Positions 1-7,669 of a stretch of 7,669 nt of DNA are shown in pieces; position 1 is the stretch's first letter; each line of letters starts with the position of its first letter. The translations under genes and the position numbers were made by a program. The stretch covers positions 1-7,669 of IMG/VR virus record IMGVR_UViG_3300007143_000050, one strand, 5' to 3'. The DNA is from a virus. The notes below the pieces were generated by a model. It saw only the letters and a list, made by a program, of their open reading frames with translations, ran no database searches and was not told the DNA's origin.

Positions 1-83
1 AATGCTGTCAAGCATCTGTTAAGTAACATAATATAAGTTATGCAGAAATCAGATCACTACTCGATTTGCGTACAAGCAAGCTT
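1..83. repeat. Terminal direct repeat, copy 1 (identical to 7587-7669)
   Basis: Base-by-base comparison: aatgctgtcaagcatctgttaagtaacataatataagttatgcagaaatcagatcactactcgatttgcgtacaagcaagctt occurs at both window ends. Confidence 0.97.
21..48 (-). other. dif-like XerC/XerD recombination site B (putative attP half). It is duplicated at 7607-7634 because it lies inside the terminal overlap.
   Basis: The minus strand reads TTTCTGCATAA-CTTATA-TTATGTTACTT. This has the dif architecture (11-nt arm ending CATAA, 6-nt centre, 11-nt arm starting TTATG). Compare E. coli dif GGTGCGCATAA-TGTATA-TTATGTTAAAT: the XerD arm matches at 8 of its first 8 positions, and the XerC arm core GCATAA is conserved. Confidence 0.6.
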
Positions 84-92
84 ACGCAAATC
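63..92 (-). terminator. Perfect 10-bp stem / 10-nt loop hairpin 14 nt downstream of the hicB-like stop codon. It may be a terminator or an origin-type hairpin.
   Basis: gatttgcgta (63-72) is the exact reverse complement of tacgcaaatc (83-92). No U-tract follows on either strand, so the terminator call is weak. Confidence 0.3.
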
Positions 93-106
93 TGCGTGGC
101 TATGAC

Positions 107-301
107 TTATCCACGAGGACTAATTCCATTCTCCATGCAAACTTGTAAGTAAATATTGAGTGACTTTTCTGCTTTCTGGTATAAGTCTTCAAGATTTGCT
201 GCATAACAGTCCGCACCGCTATTCAAACCTATAAATTGGCCATGAAATTGGTGAATATCTGAGTCATATGAAATCTCAAGGATATAACCATTAATATTCA
301 T
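107..301 (-). CDS. HicB-like antitoxin N-terminal domain protein (HicB_lk_antitox-type), lacking the usual C-terminal DNA-binding domain
   Basis: From the ATG at 301 the product is MNINGYILEISYDSDIHQFHGQFIGLNSGADCYAANLEDLYQKAEKSLNIYLQVCMENGISPRG. This fits the HicB-like N-domain pattern as I recall it: Y.G....yD.ed..FHG...G..d...feg....eL......s...YL..C.e.G..P. The ORF-track version (107-364) starts at a TTG with no SD. ATG starts exist at 322 and 301, and 301 is preceded by the purine-rich aagaagag. The protein stops right after the N-domain, with no RHH/HTH tail. Confidence 0.65.
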   Translation of the reverse strand: MNINGYILEISYDSDIHQFHGQFIGLNSGADCYAANLEDLYQKAEKSLNIYLQVCMENGISPRG

Positions 302-430
302 AATATTACTCTTCTTACACATTGTTGTGCGGTTCTTGCTCTGTAGGTAGTTACAACTATTCAATTTATATCAGTTCGCAAGTTTCACTTTATTAACGTC
401 AACTCTTCGAGATTGACCTTAATAAAGCGA

Positions 431-523
431 TTAAATTGTTCCTGGTGACAGAATTTGAACCTGTGATGAGATATAAATAATAAGAAACACTATCACGATT
501 AATATGATATAAATTTTTCTCAT
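431..523 (-). CDS. Unannotated 30-aa hydrophobic (single-TM-like) peptide
   Basis: Hand translation of the minus strand gives ATG (523-521) ... TAA (433-431) = MRKIYIILIVIVFLIIYISSQVQILSPGTI. The ATG lies 1 nt after the stop of the 86-aa ORF (TAAGATG), with GGTGG 9 nt upstream. It has a basic N-terminus followed by about 15 hydrophobic residues. It is below the ORF-track length cut-off. Confidence 0.35.
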   Translation of the reverse strand: MRKIYIILIVIVFLIIYISSQVQILSPGTI

Positions 524-524
524 C

Positions 525-785
525 TTATTTTGCCACCAAGCTGATATGAAGTAATTCAACGCTAAAGTTCTGATTCACAATGTTAATTAAGGACTCAATC
601 GTATTAAATTGCATAGGTTCAAGGTTTGAATTCGCTAAACGACCAGAGCCATATGGTGAGTAAAATCCTAAATACCATTTAGAATATTTTTTAGGCTTAT
701 GTGGAATGGCAAATACCCTAAATTGCTCTTTAGATAGACTGTAAAAGCGCTTAATTTCTTCAAGTTTAAAGTCAGAATGTTCCAT
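525..785 (-). CDS. Hypothetical 86-aa protein immediately downstream of the Zot/pI-like gene
   Basis: ATG start with AGGAAAG 5 nt upstream. It lies 10 nt after the stop of the preceding gene and on the same strand as the phage core. I recognise no family. Confidence 0.55.
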   Translation of the reverse strand: MEHSDFKLEEIKRFYSLSKEQFRVFAIPHKPKKYSKWYLGFYSPYGSGRLANSNLEPMQFNTIESLINIVNQNFSVELLHISLVAK

Positions 786-795
786 TTAATCTTTC

Positions 796-1839
796 CTAGA
801 GATTTTGTTGCGATGTGATAACTTCGGTATTTTCTTGATTACGTTCAATTAATCTTGGATTTCTGGATGAGCTCATATAGATTCCAGGATTTTTGGCATA
901 TTCGAAGCACATGGGTTCATTGTATGAAATAACTTCACCATATCCATTTCTAGCAACACATTGATTTCCACTAACAATGACTGATGCAACCCTAATAACT
1001 TCATGATCTTGATTGCCTTTTATGGTGCTACCATTTGTTTTATTAGAAGAATTCTTAGAAGTAGATGTATTTTCATCATTATTCAAATCAAGATCTGGAG
1101 CTTTGCCAATTGATTTAATTGCTTCGGTGTCCGTAGCTTTTTTTGCAATATCAATAAAACCACTAGCTAAAAACAGTTTTATTGCAAATCCCATCATGAT
1201 AATAATTGCAATCCCTGCATAAATAAATTTTCGCTGAATTTTAAAACTCATTGATGTATGCGCTGATGCGCTAGTGTATGCCTCGTAATATTTTTTATGA
1301 TATTTAAAGATATAACTATCATGATGCTTGCCTGCATTAGCTGCTGAGTATGGGTCGTTGAAATATTTATCAAAGACATAAACTGTTGCAAACGGAGGTT
1401 TATTTTGTGGACGTTTCACATAGTACATTGCATCTAATAAATTGCGAGTAGAGTGCTCTACCCTTTTAAAATCCTGAGTTATCAGATATATATCAATATT
1501 ACGGTGACCATGAATTGTGAGCTCTTTAATCATTGGGTTCTGAGAAGGTCGGCTAGACGTAAATTCATATTCTTTTCTAAAGTGCACCTCATCATAGAAA
1601 ATCACAGAACCGTCAGGGACATCACGCCAATCATCTGGCGATTTGATGACACCATTTAAATTTAAACCATCAATATCAGCATAGACTGGTCTTATTTCCT
1701 CTTTCTTTTCAGGATCTAGTGTACCTCCATCCTCAATTTTCTTTTGGTACTTAGCATTTAACTCTAACTGCTTCATTATCAGTGAAACAGCAAACTGTGT
1801 TTTTCCTTCTCTAGGTTTTCCGCAAATGCCATATAACAT
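796..1839 (-). CDS. Zot / pI-like filamentous phage assembly NTPase (zonula occludens toxin family)
   Basis: N-terminal P-loop GICGKPREGKT, Walker-B-like SVIFYDEVH, a single mid-protein TM segment (FIYAGIAIIIMMGFAIKLFLASGFI) and a C-terminal extracytoplasmic tail. This is the typical pI/Zot architecture and position (after pVI-like). SD AAGGAA lies 7 nt upstream of the ATG. Confidence 0.85.
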   Translation of the reverse strand: MLYGICGKPREGKTQFAVSLIMKQLELNAKYQKKIEDGGTLDPEKKEEIRPVYADIDGLNLNGVIKSPDDWRDVPDGSVIFYDEVHFRKEYEFTSSRPSQNPMIKELTIHGHRNIDIYLITQDFKRVEHSTRNLLDAMYYVKRPQNKPPFATVYVFDKYFNDPYSAANAGKHHDSYIFKYHKKYYEAYTSASAHTSMSFKIQRKFIYAGIAIIIMMGFAIKLFLASGFIDIAKKATDTEAIKSIGKAPDLDLNNDENTSTSKNSSNKTNGSTIKGNQDHEVIRVASVIVSGNQCVARNGYGEVISYNEPMCFEYAKNPGIYMSSSRNPRLIERNQENTEVITSQQNL

Positions 1840-1841
1840 AG

Positions 1842-2141
1842 TTATGTTCCTTTACGGAAAGCTAAATTTTTAGCTCTTAAAGTCATTTTTATAACTAGGG
1901 CACTAAAAACAATAGATAAACCCACATCAAATCCAGCAATTCCTAGTAAACCAATGACATCACCAAGTGAGTTATAAGACTGTTGTGCATATTCAATATA
2001 TTTATGGATTAAAGTTAAACTGATCGTTGTGCTAACGATGCCTATACCAAGCCCTTTTAAGATGGTTTGTCCTGATTTAGATAAAACTACATCCGCAATT
2101 TTTGTAAGCAAGGAAGCTAATGACATAGATTCAATCCTCAC
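1842..2141 (-). CDS. pVI-like hydrophobic minor coat protein
   Basis: Small, strongly hydrophobic protein (GLGIGIVSTTISLTLI, LLGIAGFDVGLSIVFSALVI) located between the pIII-like and pI-like genes. The track start at 2141 is a GTG overlapping the pIII-like stop. An ATG at 2126 preceded by GAGGA (8-nt spacing) is the more likely start, giving 1842-2126 and 94 aa. Confidence 0.65.
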   Translation of the reverse strand: MRIESMSLASLLTKIADVVLSKSGQTILKGLGIGIVSTTISLTLIHKYIEYAQQSYNSLGDVIGLLGIAGFDVGLSIVFSALVIKMTLRAKNLAFRKGT

Positions 2142-3360
2142 TCGCTTTTCTTGAAGTGCCTGTTACGATAAAGGCAGCAACCACCCAAGCTATTAGAATC
2201 ACTGCTGGTCTTGCTTGATTTGCTAAAGCACAGAATGGTTGGTAACTCAATGTAATATGGCTATTTAAATTTGCGATATTTATAGGAATTTTATTGTCTG
2301 CTGGACAATAAGCATTACCTTGAATATATGAGACTTTCATACTATTAAGTAGATGATCTAAGTTTTCTTCTTCAACTTGCTTCTCAGGCTCTTCTACATT
2401 TTCTGGTTCAGCTTTAACCCAATCAATAAATTCACATACCACATTAAACCACTCACACGCTTCGGGTAATTCTGATGTTGATAAGCCTGTTGGATTTCCA
2501 TCAGAATCCAATACTGGTCGTGTTGTGATTTCTTTGCTTACTTGGCTATCAAAGTCTTTTTCTATTTCTGTTTTTACATCCGGATCAGCAAATATATCAT
2601 TCCAGGGAAAGTAAATTTCACCTGCATGATCATCTACGATTTTGTCTATATCAGCATCAGATAATGGTGATGGTTCACTAGATGGATCTGGGTTCGGACT
2701 AGGATTAGTTTTGGTTGGTTTGTAATAGATAGAGAATGTGCCAGTATCAGTTTCACCTGTAATTTTATGTATAGAAGAATAAGGATGTTGGAAATAACCT
2801 TGTCTTGGGAAGTTCGTGATATTTAAGTAGTCATAAGGCTCTAAAGCATAATTTCGATATTGATCGGAAGGAATAAGCGCACATGATGCTGTTTTAAATG
2901 GTGAATTAGTGACACATTTAGGATTGCCAACAGTTCCTGAGTGAAATTGGTAATCACTGTACGTTGTATTTTGATCTGGTTTTTTACCCCACTTACCATT
3001 GAAGAACTCAAAGCCTAGATAACCTAAAAAGGCGACTAATGCTGCTGAACCTACTGCTAACTGTGGATTTCTAAGCACACGAGATCTTAATGATAGCTTT
3101 GCTAAATTGTTTGTTTTTAACGTATTGAGTTTATATGATTTTTGATAAGTACGATCATTTACAGCATCGCCATATTGATCAACTTTGTGGCCACTAACTT
3201 TTAAGGTTTTAGTAGAGTTGTCGATAGCATATTTTAAGTCCCATTTTTCAGCAGCACCTGCATAAATAGAATTAGACCATATTCCAGTAAGTATTAAAGA
3301 TATAGCTAAAAGAGTTTTTAAAATATTTTTAGAGCGACCAGTATCCAAATCAGTAAGCAT
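2131..3360 (-). CDS. pIII-like adsorption / minor coat protein
   Basis: The N-terminus has a signal-peptide-like hydrophobic stretch (LLAISLILTGIWSNSIYAGAAEK). There are three spaced Cys pairs and a Pro/Ser-rich linker (PTKTNPSPNPDPSSEPSPLSD). The C-terminus carries a TM anchor plus charged tail (AVILIAWVVAAFIVTGTSRKASED). It is the largest structural ORF and sits directly after the major coat gene. SD AGGAG lies 7 nt upstream. Confidence 0.7.
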   Translation of the reverse strand: MLTDLDTGRSKNILKTLLAISLILTGIWSNSIYAGAAEKWDLKYAIDNSTKTLKVSGHKVDQYGDAVNDRTYQKSYKLNTLKTNNLAKLSLRSRVLRNPQLAVGSAALVAFLGYLGFEFFNGKWGKKPDQNTTYSDYQFHSGTVGNPKCVTNSPFKTASCALIPSDQYRNYALEPYDYLNITNFPRQGYFQHPYSSIHKITGETDTGTFSIYYKPTKTNPSPNPDPSSEPSPLSDADIDKIVDDHAGEIYFPWNDIFADPDVKTEIEKDFDSQVSKEITTRPVLDSDGNPTGLSTSELPEACEWFNVVCEFIDWVKAEPENVEEPEKQVEEENLDHLLNSMKVSYIQGNAYCPADNKIPINIANLNSHITLSYQPFCALANQARPAVILIAWVVAAFIVTGTSRKASED

Positions 3361-3431
3361 AAGTATGCTCCTAGTGTATCTATATCCATTTCGTTTCTCT
3401 CAATTAATTCATAGAGTTAAGTAGAAATGAG

Positions 3432-3492
3432 ATAAGGGAGAAATTGCTCCGTTGCTGCGAGCCCTCGCAACCATCGCAATTTACTCCCTTAT
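3432..3492 (-). terminator. Long GC-enriched stem-loop between the major coat gene and the pIII-like gene. Likely a terminator/attenuator, analogous to the post-gene-VIII terminator of Ff phages.
   Basis: ataagggag/ctcccttat (3432-3440 / 3484-3492) and aaattgc/gcaattt (3441-3447 / 3476-3482) give 16 bp with one bulged A (3483). An inner tgcga-gccc-tcgca hairpin lies at 3456-3469. The structure begins 8 nt after the coat gene stop. Only a short T-run follows on the minus strand. Confidence 0.5.
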
Positions 3493-3499
3493 AGTTTGA

Positions 3500-3778
3500 T
3501 TACATTGCAGTTTTAACCCATTTAAAGACTTTCGCAGTCACGAACAGAGATAAGACCGCTAGACCAATTGCAGATACAGTTGCAATTGCACCTGTGATGG
3601 TTTGGATTACTGTTGATACATCGACACCGCCCTCAGCTGCAAATACAGAACTTGCAGATAAAGCGATTCCTGTTACGACCATTTTTTTAATGGTCTTTGT
3701 TTGTTTGGGAATCAACTCTACTCTTAAAGATTGAATACCTTGATTCTCTTGTTTTGGATAAGTTCGTACTTGTGACAT
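3500..3778 (-). CDS. Major coat protein precursor (pVIII-like)
   Basis: The predicted mature part after the ...ALSASSVFA|AEGG cleavage-like site is AEGGVDVSTVIQTITGAIATVSAIGLAVLSLFVTAKVFKWVKTAM (45 aa). It has an acidic N-terminus, a hydrophobic core and a Lys-rich C-terminus, which is the classic inovirus coat layout. The ATG at 3778 has a good SD (GGTGGA, 6-nt spacing). An internal ATG at 3682 (MVVTGIALSASSVFA...) would give a conventional short signal peptide but has no SD. Confidence 0.8.
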   Translation of the reverse strand: MSQVRTYPKQENQGIQSLRVELIPKQTKTIKKMVVTGIALSASSVFAAEGGVDVSTVIQTITGAIATVSAIGLAVLSLFVTAKVFKWVKTAM

Positions 3779-3792
3779 AATAAGTCCACCAT

Positions 3793-3981
3793 TTAATAAC
3801 GCCTGATGGCGTTTTTGGTTTGGTTAAAGACGAACACCGTTGCAAATACAAGAAGTATTGCAGCACCGATTGAATTTGCTTCGGTGTAAGTCAACTTAGG
3901 GAGCAACGATGGTTGCTCTACCCACTGAACACATGTTTGTGTTTCATTGATAGTTTTCAAATCTGAACAAACATATGCCAT
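3793..3981 (-). CDS. Small membrane protein, candidate minor coat protein (pVII/pIX analogue)
   Basis: 62 aa with one C-proximal TM segment (IGAAILLVFATVFVF) followed by a basic tail (KNAIRRY). It lies immediately upstream of the major coat gene. SD AAGGAA is 7 nt upstream of the ATG. Confidence 0.55.
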   Translation of the reverse strand: MAYVCSDLKTINETQTCVQWVEQPSLLPKLTYTEANSIGAAILLVFATVFVFNQTKNAIRRY

Positions 3982-3992
3982 TTCTAAATTCC

Positions 3993-4211
3993 TTACATTT
4001 TTTCAAGTTGATGATTTACCTTCCAAATTAATGTCTTAAGATCATTAATTTCTTCATTTGTTGTTTCATCACTGTCTTGAATTTCTTCTAAATAACCTTC
4101 CAGTACAAATTGGATTCTGGTGTAATCATCTTTACGTAATACACCTATCCGTCTGTCATAGTTCACAGATGCATGAAGTGCATTTCGACGCCTAAAATTA
4201 AATTGGTTCAA
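3993..4211 (-). CDS. Hypothetical 72-aa soluble, acidic-tailed protein; start codon uncertain
   Basis: The open frame fills the gap between the pV-like gene and the next gene. Its first codon is TTG (complement of 4209-4211), which overlaps the pV-like gene end by 14 nt. There is no SD and no in-frame ATG except the last codon. Translational coupling is plausible. Confidence 0.4.
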   Translation of the reverse strand: MNQFNFRRRNALHASVNYDRRIGVLRKDDYTRIQFVLEGYLEEIQDSDETTNEEINDLKTLIWKVNHQLEKM

Positions 4212-4479
4212 TATCGGTCAAGATTACTTTTGAAGTTTTTCCATTTGTTACGGTTTTAAATGCAACCTCGGCATTAAATGGGAAGTCGAGATGAGCAATT
4301 TTGTTGTAATTCACTGAGGTGCCCCAGTTATATTCAATGGTGGCAAATCCCATAGCATTCCCAGTACTCGAATCTAATGGCGCCTGTACATATACAACTG
4401 TTTTGTCATATTTATTTCCATTGAAATCACCTACAGAACGTTTTGCACCAGTGATTGTAAGCGTTTGATTATCTGACAT
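4198..4479 (-). CDS. ssDNA-binding protein (gene V-like)
   Basis: 93 aa, beta-rich sequence (LTITGAKRSVGDF, KTVVYVQAP, KTSKVILTDIEP) directly downstream of the replication gene, which is the conserved position of pV/RstB-type proteins. Strong SD GAGGAA lies 5 nt upstream. The assignment is mostly positional. Confidence 0.55.
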   Translation of the reverse strand: MSDNQTLTITGAKRSVGDFNGNKYDKTVVYVQAPLDSSTGNAMGFATIEYNWGTSVNYNKIAHLDFPFNAEVAFKTVTNGKTSKVILTDIEPI

Positions 4480-4539
4480 AATATTTCCTCATTAAACGAC
4501 CTTAAACTTAGTCCCATGCTGGTCTAAATAAACATGGAG

Positions 4540-5814
4540 TTATGCAACTTTCAGGAATTGTGATACTGGTTCCTGATACCAGTCTGGACGTTGTGAACCA
4601 AAGTCCACATCCACAAAGCGAAGCAACGGAACGATATTGGACTGTGCTTCGCCATGTAAATTTTGTAAAAATGCTTTAGAAAAGCCTGCATCTTGTAATT
4701 CTTTGATATGTCTATAGAAAGTTTGATTTCCGTTATGCATTTTCTTTAATGCGCTATATCCTTGTTCTCTCAAGGAAATATAAAATAGAAGTAATTTATG
4801 AGCTTTGGAGTAACTAATATTCCCTTTAGGAGTGAGTTTGAAATGAACAGATTTAAGTTGTTCTAGTACAGAATCATCATCAGTAATTTTCATTGTTTGA
4901 CCCTCGAAAGCGGCAAAGATATCTGACGTGGTTTCTTTCCATAATTCAGCACATAAGGAACGACCTTGATTTTTTAAGTCCTGTTCATATTGAATTAGAT
5001 CAGTTAATAGAAACGGCAATTCACGTCTTTGTAGCCAACGCTTGCAGATAGTAGATTCGAAACGGATAAGACCCTTAGACCACTCAATTAGCCTTGGATC
5101 AGACATTACGTTGTAGACTCTTAAAGCGACTTCATCTCCAGCGTCAGCTTTTTTCTTGTAATCTTGCATTTGTTTTTGATATTCAATTGCTTTGAGATAT
5201 GCCTTTAAGCGTTTTAGTCTAGAATTTTTTGCACCCCAATAAGCTGTAGTTTGATATTCATCGCCCCTCGCCTTTGTTTGCCCATTACTTACTTTTTTCA
5301 GCATGTCCATAACTTGCTGGGCTTCATAATCATTTTTTAAACGAGCTGAATAAGTTGCATCTAGTTCCCATATTTGTGTTGATTCAACTTCAAGCATTGA
5401 AAATAACTTTGGATATGCCTTTTGTAAGGTCGTCAACATTTCAGCAGCCCCTTGAGCAATATCTGTTGGGCCAAATAAGTTATGTCCCTGGAGAAGTTTT
5501 GCTGGAGATGCCTTTATTTCTATATATGGATAATGATTACAGTCATGGAACACTTTAAATGCCAAAGGTGTATATGAGCTTTCAAGGGATTCAAACGGAT
5601 GATAAATTTCATCTATTTGCCAATCTTTCCAGAATCTATCTTCATGCTCTGCTAAAGCGACTGCCCTAGCCCCTAATGGAATTCCAAGTTTAAGAACATC
5701 AAATAGCATTCCTTTATGCTCATGCTCCATGGCATTTTTTGCAGTCAAATAGGCTGATGCCCCAGTTACATACTGAGGCTTAAATGGTGTCATCATTCTT
5801 AGCCTATCCCACAT
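4540..5814 (-). CDS. Rolling-circle replication initiation protein (pII / Phage_CRI family)
   Basis: The motif IEIKASPAKLLQGHNLFG matches the conserved ..NP.K.LQGHN.FG signature I associate with filamentous phage replication proteins (gene II/X, CRI). It is the largest ORF and the first in the core operon. The start could be the ATG at 5814 (no SD) or the ATG-ATG at 5796/5793 (preceded by taggctaaga). Confidence 0.8.
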   Translation of the reverse strand: MWDRLRMMTPFKPQYVTGASAYLTAKNAMEHEHKGMLFDVLKLGIPLGARAVALAEHEDRFWKDWQIDEIYHPFESLESSYTPLAFKVFHDCNHYPYIEIKASPAKLLQGHNLFGPTDIAQGAAEMLTTLQKAYPKLFSMLEVESTQIWELDATYSARLKNDYEAQQVMDMLKKVSNGQTKARGDEYQTTAYWGAKNSRLKRLKAYLKAIEYQKQMQDYKKKADAGDEVALRVYNVMSDPRLIEWSKGLIRFESTICKRWLQRRELPFLLTDLIQYEQDLKNQGRSLCAELWKETTSDIFAAFEGQTMKITDDDSVLEQLKSVHFKLTPKGNISYSKAHKLLLFYISLREQGYSALKKMHNGNQTFYRHIKELQDAGFSKAFLQNLHGEAQSNIVPLLRFVDVDFGSQRPDWYQEPVSQFLKVA

Positions 5815-5938
5815 AATTTACTTGTTTAAAAGTTACCAATAGAAGTAAAACAATTAAAACAATTTAAAAGTAACTTTACAATCTAAAAATAAAGGTAAAA
5901 TGTAAAAAAGTAACTTTGTTTATATGAGTACTATGTGA
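5815..5938. promoter_or_regulatory. Divergent control region between the replication gene and the small plus-strand gene. It carries repeated AAAAGTAACTTT boxes and a tandem 9-mer.
   Basis: AAAAGTAACTTT occurs at 5866-5877 and 5906-5917, exactly 40 bp apart. The inverted core AAAAGTTAC occurs at 5828-5836. A tandem AAAACAATT x2 lies at 5847-5864. The region is extremely AT-rich with many -10-like hexamers, and I cannot assign individual promoters confidently. Confidence 0.5.
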
Positions 5939-6133
5939 ATGGCTAAAGTCTATAAAGTCCGAGATGAAGAAGTAGAGGCAATTAAAGAAGCCTTGATGAA
6001 ATTTGTCATTGATAAAAAAGTCTTAATGAAAGAATCGGATGTGATCCATGCATTGATTAAATATCATCTTAAAAACTTAAAGTCTGAGGAAGTTGTTCGC
6101 TATCGAGAAGATGTTTTAGGTAAAGATGACTAA
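5939..6133 (+). CDS. Small (64 aa) putative transcriptional regulator, transcribed divergently from the replication gene (positional analogue of RstR/phage repressors)
   Basis: MAKVYKVRDEEVEAIKEALMKF...ESDVIHALIKYHL is compatible with a short strand-helix-helix (RHH-like) layout. The position is divergent from rep across a repeat-bearing intergenic region. The SD is weak. No family was recognised with certainty. Confidence 0.4.
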   Translation: MAKVYKVRDEEVEAIKEALMKFVIDKKVLMKESDVIHALIKYHLKNLKSEEVVRYREDVLGKDD

Positions 6134-6146
6134 TCTTAGTCATCTT
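6123..6146. terminator. Perfect 10-bp hairpin between the convergent genes 5939-6133 (+) and 6155-6667 (-)
   Basis: aagatgacta (6123-6132) / tagtcatctt (6137-6146) with loop atct. It overlaps the TAA stop of the plus-strand gene. There is no clear U-tract on either side, so terminator function is uncertain. Confidence 0.35.
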
Positions 6147-6154
6147 CTAACCAA

Positions 6155-6667
6155 TTAAATTGCATGATAATTTTTATTAAATGAACTTGCTAAGTTACGG
6201 TGACAATAAGATATTGCATCAGATTCAAGTTCTTTTGAATTTCCATTTATTCTAATTGCTTCAATTAGTGCGCGATATTCAAGAGCAGTTATACGACGCG
6301 CTAACCTATAAGGCTCTTTCATGCCTTTCAAATGATCTTGAACAGAACTATGATTAAAGTTTTCGTGACCTGTCTCCCAATCCATGTACTGAATTAAATC
6401 AGCATCATTCATATTTTTTATAATGAGAGAGTATTCAGATACTTTTTTTTGGAAATTTTCATCTGTTATTAGGTAATACTGAAAGGATGAGTCTCGCCCA
6501 TCATAATCCACTACATCAAGCTCTTTGATATACAAGGCTTGCAAATCAGTCCCCCACTCTTTGGGGTTGGAATATTCTGAATTTACGAAAGGAGCATTCT
6601 CAAGTTGGTTATTTGTACGCTCAGTGAATTTTAAAAATGCTTCTGTATCAATTGATAAATTAGTCAT
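6155..6667 (-). CDS. Hypothetical 170-aa protein (accessory gene, no family recognised)
   Basis: ATG with strong SD GAGGA 6 nt upstream. A promoter-like element lies upstream. The protein is soluble and rich in acidic residues. It lies outside the conserved inovirus core. Confidence 0.6.
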   Translation of the reverse strand: MTNLSIDTEAFLKFTERTNNQLENAPFVNSEYSNPKEWGTDLQALYIKELDVVDYDGRDSSFQYYLITDENFQKKVSEYSLIIKNMNDADLIQYMDWETGHENFNHSSVQDHLKGMKEPYRLARRITALEYRALIEAIRINGNSKELESDAISYCHRNLASSFNKNYHAI

Positions 6668-6703
6668 AGATAGTCCTCAAAATTATTTTATAAACAACTT
6701 TGA

Positions 6704-6731
6704 ATTATAAAACCAGCTATAAAGACGACAA
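6704..6731 (-). promoter_or_regulatory. Sigma70-like promoter candidate for the 170-aa gene
   Basis: The minus strand reads TTGTCG (6731-6726), a 16-nt spacer, then TATAAT (6709-6704). The -10 lies about 37 nt upstream of the ATG at 6667. Confidence 0.4.
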
Positions 6732-6808
6732 AAGTTTTGTACTAATTTCAACCATAGGAGTTGTTGGAGAAATATGTCTTTTATGGGTGATTAATCTCAA
6801 AATGAGAC

Positions 6809-6843
6809 AAGAGTCCACCATTAGATAACGTGGACTCTTTTTT
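6809..6843 (+). terminator. Rho-independent terminator, plus-strand orientation
   Basis: aagagtccac (6809-6818) / gtggactctt (6830-6839) with an 11-nt loop. The stem runs directly into a T-tract (six consecutive T at 6838-6843). The opposite strand has no T-tract directly after the stem. Confidence 0.6.
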
Positions 6844-6945
6844 GTACAAATAAACATCAACAAAGTAATTTAAAAAAATTAACCACTTGAAAATTAAATT
6901 AATAAACAGATACTAAATATCTCAATAACTTTATAAGGAAAATAA

Positions 6946-7443
6946 GTGGAAATTCAATTAACAGATAAAGAACGTTTATTCTTGGCTAATCAGCATGAGA
7001 TTCTAAGTTTTTTAGACAAAGATAATTCAGAATATCATTCGAAACTTGCCGAGCAATTGAAACGTGGTCATAAATGGTTGTATGAACAGAGTTTTGATTA
7101 TTTCTCTGAAAATCTTTCAGAAGAAAATGCACAATTGGTTTTAGATATTCTTCAAATCTATGAAATGCTTCAAGATGCTTATGATTCTGTTGTAGATAAG
7201 ACAAAAGTCTCCGCAGATGAAATTAAATTCCCTGGATTTGATGGAAATAATGAACCTGAATTCATGGGTTTTGTTGACGCCTTGAAGAAAGATGATCGCT
7301 ATGTTGATGTTATTGAAAATGGATATAGAAACTCTCATTCACAAAAGATTCATAGATATTCAATTATGATCACGAAATGGGAAGAGTTTGGTAAACCTTA
7401 TAGCCTTACAAATGATCAAGTGCTTGAAATTTTGGGTAAATAA
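6946..7443 (+). CDS. yfbU: YfbU / UPF0304 family protein
   Basis: 165 aa, the same length class as E. coli YfbU, with matches to it from memory along the whole length (ERLFLANQ..IL..LD...EY vs QRLILSNQ..MM..LD..NAERY; RG; F.GFD; G.V....RY; Y..M...W....Y.L). GTG start at 6946 with AAGGA 6 nt upstream. The upstream region is AT-rich and contains a TTGAAA hexamer (6887-6892). Confidence 0.7.
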   Translation: MEIQLTDKERLFLANQHEILSFLDKDNSEYHSKLAEQLKRGHKWLYEQSFDYFSENLSEENAQLVLDILQIYEMLQDAYDSVVDKTKVSADEIKFPGFDGNNEPEFMGFVDALKKDDRYVDVIENGYRNSHSQKIHRYSIMITKWEEFGKPYSLTNDQVLEILGK

Positions 7444-7464
7444 TCATTTACACTAGTCATTCTG

Positions 7465-7493
7465 AAGTCGCATAACTTCATTTTATGTTAAAT
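7465..7493 (+). other. dif-like XerC/XerD site A, inverted relative to site B
   Basis: AAGTCGCATAA-CTTCATT-TTATGTTAAAT. The right arm is identical to the 11-nt XerD arm of E. coli dif (TTATGTTAAAT). The left arm shares CGCATAA with the XerC arm. The centre is 7 nt as written, or 6 nt if the right arm is shifted by one. Confidence 0.6.
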
Positions 7494-7502
7494 AACATAT
7501 CT

Positions 7503-7596
7503 ACGACAGCACCCTAATTTAGTTGCGTTACCGCAACTTCATTTCAATCGTTGGTGCTGTGCCTGACAGCTTATGTAACAAGTGACAATGCTGTCA
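7503..7596. other. Cluster of nested hairpins in the large non-coding region. Candidate origin or packaging-signal structures.
   Basis: acagcacc (7506-7513) / ggtgctgt (7553-7560) enclose agttgcg-ttac-cgcaact (7521-7538). tgacagc (7564-7570) pairs with gctgtca (7590-7596). The hexamer GACAGC or its complement recurs four times (7505, 7556 imperfect, 7565, 7590). Confidence 0.45.
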
Positions 7597-7669
7597 AGCA
7601 TCTGTTAAGTAACATAATATAAGTTATGCAGAAATCAGATCACTACTCGATTTGCGTACAAGCAAGCTT
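7587..7669. repeat. Terminal direct repeat, copy 2 (identical to 1-83). The repeat is cut by the window end.
   Basis: Same 83-nt string as 1-83. The hairpin at 63-92 is only half contained in this copy, so the repeat looks like an overlap or permutation boundary rather than a biological repeat end. Confidence 0.97.

Follow-up and report, generated by a model that had tools for sequence, protein, structure and literature searches.

The 7,669-nucleotide stretch of viral DNA analysed here (positions 1 to 7,669 of IMG/VR record IMGVR_UViG_3300007143_000050, called the window below) carries a small gene whose product, judged by sequence and predicted fold, is a homologue of the N-terminal domain of the HicB antitoxin (COG4226/PF05534 type). 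The window has an exact 83-bp terminal overlap and thus represents a complete circular inovirus genome of 7,586 bp. Neither a HicA toxin nor the DNA-binding tail of HicB is found with the domain. Nevertheless, the gene is maintained under purifying selection in a group of related Acinetobacter phages, where its product may neutralise HicA toxins encoded elsewhere. The gene has the following position:

107..322, minus strand: stand-alone HicB N-domain gene, 71 amino acids (MCKKSNIM...GISPRG), TAA stop codon at 107-109

An alternative ATG at 299-301 gives a 64-residue form (MNINGY..., gene 107-301), which is the form reported by some gene callers. The relatives of the protein have 63-71 residues, and the homology to them, both in DNA and in protein, begins near window positions 313-329. 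The start is therefore at 322 or 301, and not at the TTG at 364 (85 amino acids) given in an earlier note made from the letters alone, which lies about 40-60 bases too far upstream. The reading frame and the stop codon of that note are right.

Homology and predicted fold

The PHROG 9151 profile, "HicB-like antitoxin", matches residues 6-70 of the window protein with E=1.3e-6 (profile positions 3-67 of 119). An exhaustive profile search with the protein, covering 1.84 billion representatives, gives 333 matches at E<=1e-3 and 42 at E<=1e-10. The majority of the 333 matches are 95-165 residues long and align solely through their N-terminus, over about the first 65 residues. The Pfam family PF05534, "HicB", is present in 31 of 82 aligned relatives. 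In the full-length relatives, its model of 51 positions covers residues ~54-105, which comprise the last part of the helix, the linker and the ribbon-helix-helix. As this sole matching model covers the part that is absent here, the window protein has no match in Pfam or NCBIfam; PADLOC gives none either. RefSeq names the plasmid homologues found by tblastn as HicB antitoxins beside HicA toxins, and the UniRef label of one close relative is "HicB family protein". An exact-sequence lookup of the window protein returned no record.

The structure predicted by AlphaFold2 from the 82-sequence alignment has four strands followed by one long helix, with a predicted local distance difference test score (pLDDT) of 87.5. 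An initial prediction from three sequences, with a pLDDT of 66.9, was too weak for use. The top Foldseek match among viral models is a protein annotated as "nuclease of the RNase H fold, HicB family" (E=9e-5, template modelling (TM) score 0.82, root-mean-square deviation (rmsd) 1.5 Å). In the PDB, the best geometry is found for Burkholderia pseudomallei HicB, both full-length (6g26) and as the N-domain (6g1c), with TM scores of 0.63-0.66 and an rmsd of 1.6-1.7 Å over 54-56 residues. The sequence identity in these superpositions is only 7-10%. The two matches have Foldseek probabilities of 0.95-0.97 and E-values of about 0.7-1, and no PDB match is significant by E-value. HMMER searches of the PDB sequences with profiles of 3 and 82 sequences gave chance matches only. 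The likeness to the HicB N-domain that the earlier note had recognised is thus seen in PHROG 9151, in the profile search, in the AlphaFold2 model and in Foldseek, and the hidden Markov model (HMM) and structure comparisons agree on it, with the E-values just given for the PDB.

Many uncharacterised tailed-phage proteins of 57-99 residues in the BFVD collection share the fold at TM scores of 0.6-0.8, among them proteins of Escherichia phage Seurat, Pantoea phage Vid5 and Campylobacter phage F379. Judging from these models, stand-alone HicB-like domains may be common as phage cargo.

Absence of HicA and of the DNA-binding tail

The window protein stops at residue 71, 5-6 residues past its helix, and no remnant of a ribbon-helix-helix was detected beyond the stop codon by tblastn or HMM searches. 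The protein thus ends right after the N-domain and has no ribbon-helix-helix or helix-turn-helix domain, in agreement with the earlier description. The best candidate remnant (tblastn E=0.03) falls at 4164-4205, within an unrelated 72-residue gene, and was rejected. The N-terminus of the product of that gene, QFNFRRRNALHA, weakly resembles the first strand and the helix start of the HicB ribbon-helix-helix.

The same agreement holds for the statement that HicA is missing from the genome, which was confirmed on the complete circle by three procedures. Pfam family PF07927 has no match in the stop-to-stop open reading frames of 35-149 residues of the whole circular genome; the frames of at least 150 residues were scanned with Pfam separately, except for the 409-residue gene at 2131-3360. 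Searching the complete phage genome by tblastn with 49 cognate HicA sequences gave no HicA, the best E-value being 0.15. A custom HMM built from these 49 sequences and 118 HicA homologues, applied to every segment of the window of at least 15 residues, likewise found none (best E=0.95, 3.9 bits). One stretch at 699-758, inside an 86-residue open reading frame, gave recurrent weak tblastn matches ("RVFAIPHKP" against "RVFHRPHP"). It was rejected as a hidden HicA because the E-values are 0.77 or higher, the alignment lacks collinearity with the HicA domain, and both Pfam and the custom HMM fail to support it.

The 86-residue protein, encoded between Zot and the HicB N-domain gene, is by its sequence not a HicA. 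The small hydrophobic open reading frame directly upstream of the HicB N-domain gene does not encode a HicA and is perhaps no gene at all. No consistent partner was found among these two and the YfbU-family gene across the attachment site, because the neighbours differ among the backbones that carry the HicB N-domain gene (the window, L081-L083, L092-L097 and L098).

Full-length and short relatives

Relatives of the window protein are encoded at 80 IMG/VR loci that were examined, 70 of them full-length (105-140 residues) and 10 short (72-86 residues). An 84-residue gene ends within a few bases of the start of 64 of the 70 full-length genes. Four of these neighbours were scanned, and all four match PF07927, HicA_toxin, at 36-41 bits (cut-off 27). 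The full-length family is a true hicA-hicB module. None of the 10 short relatives has the upstream HicA gene, as against 64 of the 70 full-length ones (Fisher p=5e-9, although several loci are close kin and independence is overstated). Among the relatives, loss of the toxin gene accompanies loss of the tail.

The short relatives are cut inside the ribbon-helix-helix or immediately ahead of it. They are found repeatedly in tailed prophages, at loci that form about six groups (L003/L005/L006, L022/L024/L032, L023, L034, L046 and L053), none of which has an intact HicA upstream. In L003/L005/L006 the cut lies inside the ribbon-helix-helix and the gene is preceded by one for a 139-residue helix-turn-helix protein, while L053 retains HicA-like fragments. 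A tblastn search with the core proteins of the window against the related small IMG/VR contigs gave no matches. A metagenome scan with the window protein found full-length relatives only, at about 50% identity.

Conservation and selection

Three clusters at 90% identity around the window protein contain 29 distinct sequences of 58-71 residues from about 259 contigs. The C-terminal end point is the same in 27 of the 29 variants; one of the two exceptions is a 58-residue fragment. Between the window gene and relatives whose products are 73-75% identical, the ratio of nonsynonymous to synonymous substitutions (dN/dS) is 0.23-0.26 over the whole length and falls to 0.15-0.16 within the domain core, at a dS of about 0.75. 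For the N-domains of HicA-paired relatives at similar divergence, the median dN/dS is 0.09, with a 10-90% range of 0.05-0.23. The selective constraint on the toxin-less clade is comparable to that on HicA-paired N-domains, and the gene is a maintained one under purifying selection.

The window protein retains 10 of the 14 nearly invariant positions of the family, and its clade as a whole retains most of them. The clade shares the changes R27H and F39C, at positions that are at least 90% conserved in the family, and often E29Q. His-27 is also found in the HicA-paired HicB of an A. indicus plasmid, so that R27H does not imply that HicA binding has been lost.

Position in the phage genome and distribution

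The HicB N-domain gene closes the main operon on its distal side, with no further gene before the attachment-site junction. A related inovirus, the 7,462-bp contig L084 of A. populi PBJ7, was found by a scan of genome collections with the Rep protein, which is 85% identical in the two phages. The same scan with the window protein found no close relative. L084 lacks the HicB N-domain gene. Homology to the window resumes one base past the stop codon (from 106 downwards), and a different 108-residue gene occupies the slot. The position of the gene at the end of the core operon, described earlier as that of a moron, is thus borne out by a slot whose content is exchanged in the A. populi phage, and a second slot of the genome is variable as well.

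In three short metagenome contigs, the HicB N-domain gene stands behind a different upstream gene. It occurs on at least two phage backbones, between which it is mobile. Six longer contigs contain the phage in integrated form, and in each of them the phage genes end with the HicB N-domain gene, at a distance of about 280 bases from the host genes.

In A. bohemicus, the HicB N-domain gene is the last gene of a small element in the chromosome (L098 6200-10216, FOZU01000004.1, and L099). Besides this gene the element contains only a YfbU gene and several genes for 64-149 residues, and no gene for Rep, Zot or a coat protein was detected in it by Pfam. The element could have arisen by degradation of a prophage, or it could be satellite-like and use the same attachment site.

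Candidate targets in Acinetobacter

A. populi PBJ7, the strain that carries the inovirus L084, has a chromosomal pair of hicA (84 residues) and hicB (115 residues, PF05534). Another hicAB pair lies on the A. indicus plasmid pCZH-5-2. The window protein is 44-45% identical to the N-domains of both HicB proteins. Further HicA entries exist from Acinetobacter and Moraxellaceae. Modules of the matching type are therefore present in the host genus.

Proposed role and alternative explanations

The window protein may be a functional, free-standing, toxin-binding HicB N-domain, carried as accessory cargo and most likely neutralising HicA encoded elsewhere. This reading of the sequence data is given nearly an even chance. 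The ancestor of the gene would have been the hicB of a hicA (84 residues)-hicB (~110 residues) module, which has since lost hicA as well as the part of hicB that encodes the ribbon-helix-helix repressor tail. On account of these losses the protein should be able neither to poison the cell nor to regulate itself. It would bind and block HicA-family RNase toxins from the host chromosome, from plasmids or from other prophages. The infected or lysogenic cell would then be shielded from HicA activation, whether this belongs to an abortive-infection-type defence or to post-segregational killing by a competing element. A review of HicAB assigns the neutralisation of HicA to the N-domain of HicB and operator binding to its C-terminal domain (PMC11594946), and thus a free N-domain is expected to sequester HicA without regulating a promoter.

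The gene has the features by which orphan antitoxins are recognised: it encodes a toxin-less antitoxin homologue, is under selection on a mobile element, and has the cognate toxin family in its hosts. From this pattern in the sequences we infer a role in counter-defence or anti-addiction. A stronger form of the proposal is that a dedicated clade of trans-acting HicA inhibitors exists in CTX-like Acinetobacter inoviruses, which would be the first anti-HicAB countermeasure and the first orphan-antitoxin countermeasure of a filamentous phage. This is possible, but we would put it clearly on the less probable side.

Several observations weigh against neutralisation of HicA. No sigma-70-like promoter was found directly upstream of the gene. 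There is no hicA within 10 kb of it in the six integrated prophage loci and the two A. bohemicus loci. The HicA subfamily is rare on Acinetobacter plasmids, the genus accounting for 1 of the 221 plasmid records in PLSDB that have this subfamily. The clade-specific changes R27H, F39C and E29Q may indicate, as far as sequence can tell, that the binding surface has changed partner. Finally, as of a 2024 review, an anti-phage role of HicAB has been proposed only (PMC11594946).

The changes at these nearly invariant positions also favour the alternative that the HicB N-fold was kept for a new task unrelated to HicA. Such an exapted domain might bind another toxin or a host factor, might bind RNA or DNA by means of a degraded RNase H or double-stranded RNA-binding-domain-like fold, or might assist at the adjacent attachment site. 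The attachment-site region does follow the gene directly in every locus examined, on different backbones, and this explanation would agree both with the rarity of cognate HicA on Acinetobacter plasmids and with the occurrence of the fold in the many uncharacterised 57-99-residue phage proteins. However, His-27 is shared with a HicA-paired Acinetobacter HicB, most of the nearly invariant positions are kept, and the constraint matches that on the paired relatives. The attachment site, moreover, does not need the gene, since L084 has the site without it. Exaptation is thus considered unlikely, though far from negligible. A dominant-negative effect would involve the host's own HicB: the free N-domain would mix with the full-length protein, disturb repression or the stoichiometry with the toxin, and in this way tune hicAB. 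The window protein does have the N-domain without the DNA-binding part, and the HicB proteins of Y. pestis and B. pseudomallei are tetramers, held together in Y. pestis by N-domain contacts (PMC11594946). Hetero-oligomers are nonetheless uncertain at only 44-45% identity to the Acinetobacter HicB N-domains, and a release of HicA would be detrimental to cells from which the phage is chronically produced, which makes this mode of action improbable.

There is similarly little likelihood that the gene is an inert remnant, left of a hicAB cassette from which hicA and the 3' half of hicB have disappeared. Tailed prophages do hold truncated relatives without an intact hicA, some of which (L053, L003/5/6) resemble recent frameshifts or deletions, and no promoter was detected upstream of the window gene. 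A remnant would, however, hardly show a dN/dS of 0.15-0.26 at a dS of ~0.75, nor an end point shared by nearly all of the 29 variants from ~259 contigs. The gene also occurs on two or more phage backbones as well as on the small A. bohemicus element, and the flanking DNA has no trace of hicA or of the tail. Addiction in trans, suggested in the earlier note, would have the phage N-domain restrain a chromosomal HicA, so that loss of the phage kills the cell. It is conceivable if the resident hicB was lost or repressed after the phage had been acquired. Yet the sole hicA examined in a host strain is paired with an intact, full-length hicB, and no hicA lies within 10 kb of the gene in the prophage loci. 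CTX-type insertion is not known to be readily reversed. By analogy, prophages with a CTX-like folded site and tandem arrays should need little stabilising, since they would not be readily excised. The suggestion thus finds no support, and we hold addiction to be a poor prospect. Neutralisation of HicA encoded elsewhere remains the preferred account.

Relation to known systems and significance

The full-length HicB proteins of the COG4226/PF05534 type, such as those of A. populi PBJ7 and the A. indicus plasmid pCZH-5-2, have an N-domain homologous to the window protein, with 44-55% identity to the closest full-length members. They share the strand-strand-strand-strand-helix fold, and most of their nearly invariant residues are kept in the window protein. 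The latter differs in ending at the linker, in lacking the ribbon-helix-helix, the Pfam match, autoregulation and hicA, and in having two or three changed positions.

Phages and plasmids are known to carry orphan antitoxins as counter-defence or anti-addiction factors (PMC11825919, PMC11541004). Orphan DarG-like enzymes of T4-like phages act against DarTG1 (PMC11825919), and orphan antitoxins lie in the leading regions of plasmids (PMC11541004). The window gene resembles them as a toxin-less antitoxin homologue in an accessory position on a mobile element. It differs in belonging to the HicB family, in being carried by a chronic filamentous phage instead of a lytic phage or conjugative plasmid, and in being known from sequence alone. 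Inoviruses also have toxin-antitoxin cargo: 15 sets of protein families that may form pairs have been described in 181 genomes (PMC6813254), and PfiAT of Pf4 is such cargo of a filamentous phage (PMC13048266). These are complete pairs, whereas the accessory gene derived from a toxin-antitoxin system is here half an antitoxin.

In view of the inovirus toxin-antitoxin sets (PMC6813254) and the orphan antitoxins (PMC11825919, PMC11541004), the description of the gene as a new function for inovirus cargo was overstated. PHROGs and UniRef already label the family as HicB-like, and orphan antitoxins are an established class of genes on mobile elements. The novelty lies in a combination of features: the HicB clade carried by CTX-like inoviruses of Acinetobacter is conserved and under selection, consists of one domain and has no toxin.

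If the proposed role is true, HicAB modules would restrict chronic phage infection. Neutralisation of HicA by the window protein would give the first direct handle on two matters, namely whether HicAB acts against phages or competing mobile elements, and by what means a phage that is produced chronically and without lysis deals with toxin-antitoxin systems. With its 64-71 residues, the protein would also be a natural inhibitor of HicA of minimal size. In a wider pattern, antitoxin domains without toxin and regulator recur as phage cargo, and the window gene is a well-documented case.

Attachment site and integration

Two dif-like sites flank the junction of the circular genome:

21..48, minus strand: dif-like site A, TTTCTGCATAA CTTATA TTATGTTACTT, one arm of the folded site; a copy at 7607-7634 is due to the terminal overlap
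7466..7493, minus strand: dif-like site B, ATTTAACATAA AATGAA GTTATGCGACT, inverted relative to site A
63..92, no strand assigned: perfect 10-bp inverted repeat, GATTTGCGTA / TACGCAAATC, with a 10-nt loop, beginning 15 bases past the stop codon of the HicB N-domain gene
7587..7669, no strand assigned: exact repeat of window 1-83, 83 bp, assembly overlap

The viral strand at 7455-7645 folds into a long forked hairpin (~7461-7640, -39.2 kcal/mol, z=-8.0) in which sites A and B are paired. Comparison of the circular form with the prophage junctions of L092, L096 and L098 places the join between phage and host directly after ATTTAACATAA. The host side of the junction, ATTTAACATAA TATACA TTATACGCAAT, is dif-like. 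Four of the six integrated contigs (L092-L095) contain tandem prophages of two or three copies.

Paired inverted dif-like sites in a hairpin are the arrangement known for CTX phage. The window phage and its relatives share with CTX-phi-type phages the inverted dif-like sites, the hairpin, a junction inside a dif-like site and the tandem prophages; the host is here Acinetobacter. By this analogy, integration in Acinetobacter resembles that of CTX phage and appears to be of the XerCD/dif type. Tandem prophages have also been reported in 2024 for filamentous phages of A. baumannii, for which host recombinases were suggested; HicB or antitoxins are not mentioned there (PMC11209303).

A scan near the HicB N-domain gene found no canonical promoter or terminator. 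The inverted repeat at 63..92 lacks a T-run and is therefore not a canonical terminator. It is partly kept, with mismatches, in L081-L083, L092 and L098, and is a candidate for the transcript end or for a part of the attachment-site structure.

Genome organization and other cargo

The window has a G+C content of 34.5%. A megablast search of the whole window against GenBank phages gave no match. The core operon and the accessory genes around it, the former identified by Pfam and PHROG matches, are arranged as follows:

796..5814, minus strand: inovirus core operon
4540-5814, minus strand: Rep, with the G2P N- and C-terminal domains
4198-4479, minus strand: protein resembling single-stranded DNA-binding proteins; small proteins are also encoded in the operon
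3993-4211, minus strand: 72-residue protein, PHROG 13740
3500-3778, minus strand: Coat B
2131-3360, minus strand: adsorption protein, 409 residues
1842-2141, minus strand: DUF2523 pVI-like protein
796-1839, minus strand: Zot/pI
525..785, minus strand: 86-residue conserved phage protein, PHROG 22833 (no assigned function), between Zot and the HicB N-domain gene
431..559, minus strand: small hydrophobic open reading frame upstream of the HicB N-domain gene, 42 residues from a TTG or ~30 residues from an ATG
6946..7443, plus strand: YfbU-family cargo gene (PF03887, E=1.6e-33; NF003936) in the second variable slot, across the attachment site

The 86-residue protein has an 85-residue counterpart in the same place after Zot in the prophages L092-L097. 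The 72-residue protein has a weak match, below the cut-off, to the Pfam family AdfA, "Anti-DarT factor A" (E=0.013), and a homologue of it is encoded at the end of the operon in L082 and L084.

The second slot contains a gene for 118 residues in L081, one for 161 residues in L084, and three genes (218, 186 and 44 residues) in L092. A stretch of 40-50 bp at window 6803-6842 is 95-96% identical to L081 918-957 and L084 1334-1384 despite the differing adjacent genes, and this slot apparently has its far boundary there. The 218-residue cargo protein of L092 (2077-2733) has sub-threshold matches to HEPN families (HEPN_Apea, E=0.005; RiboL-PSP-HEPN, E=0.03) and could be the product of a toxin or defence-type gene.

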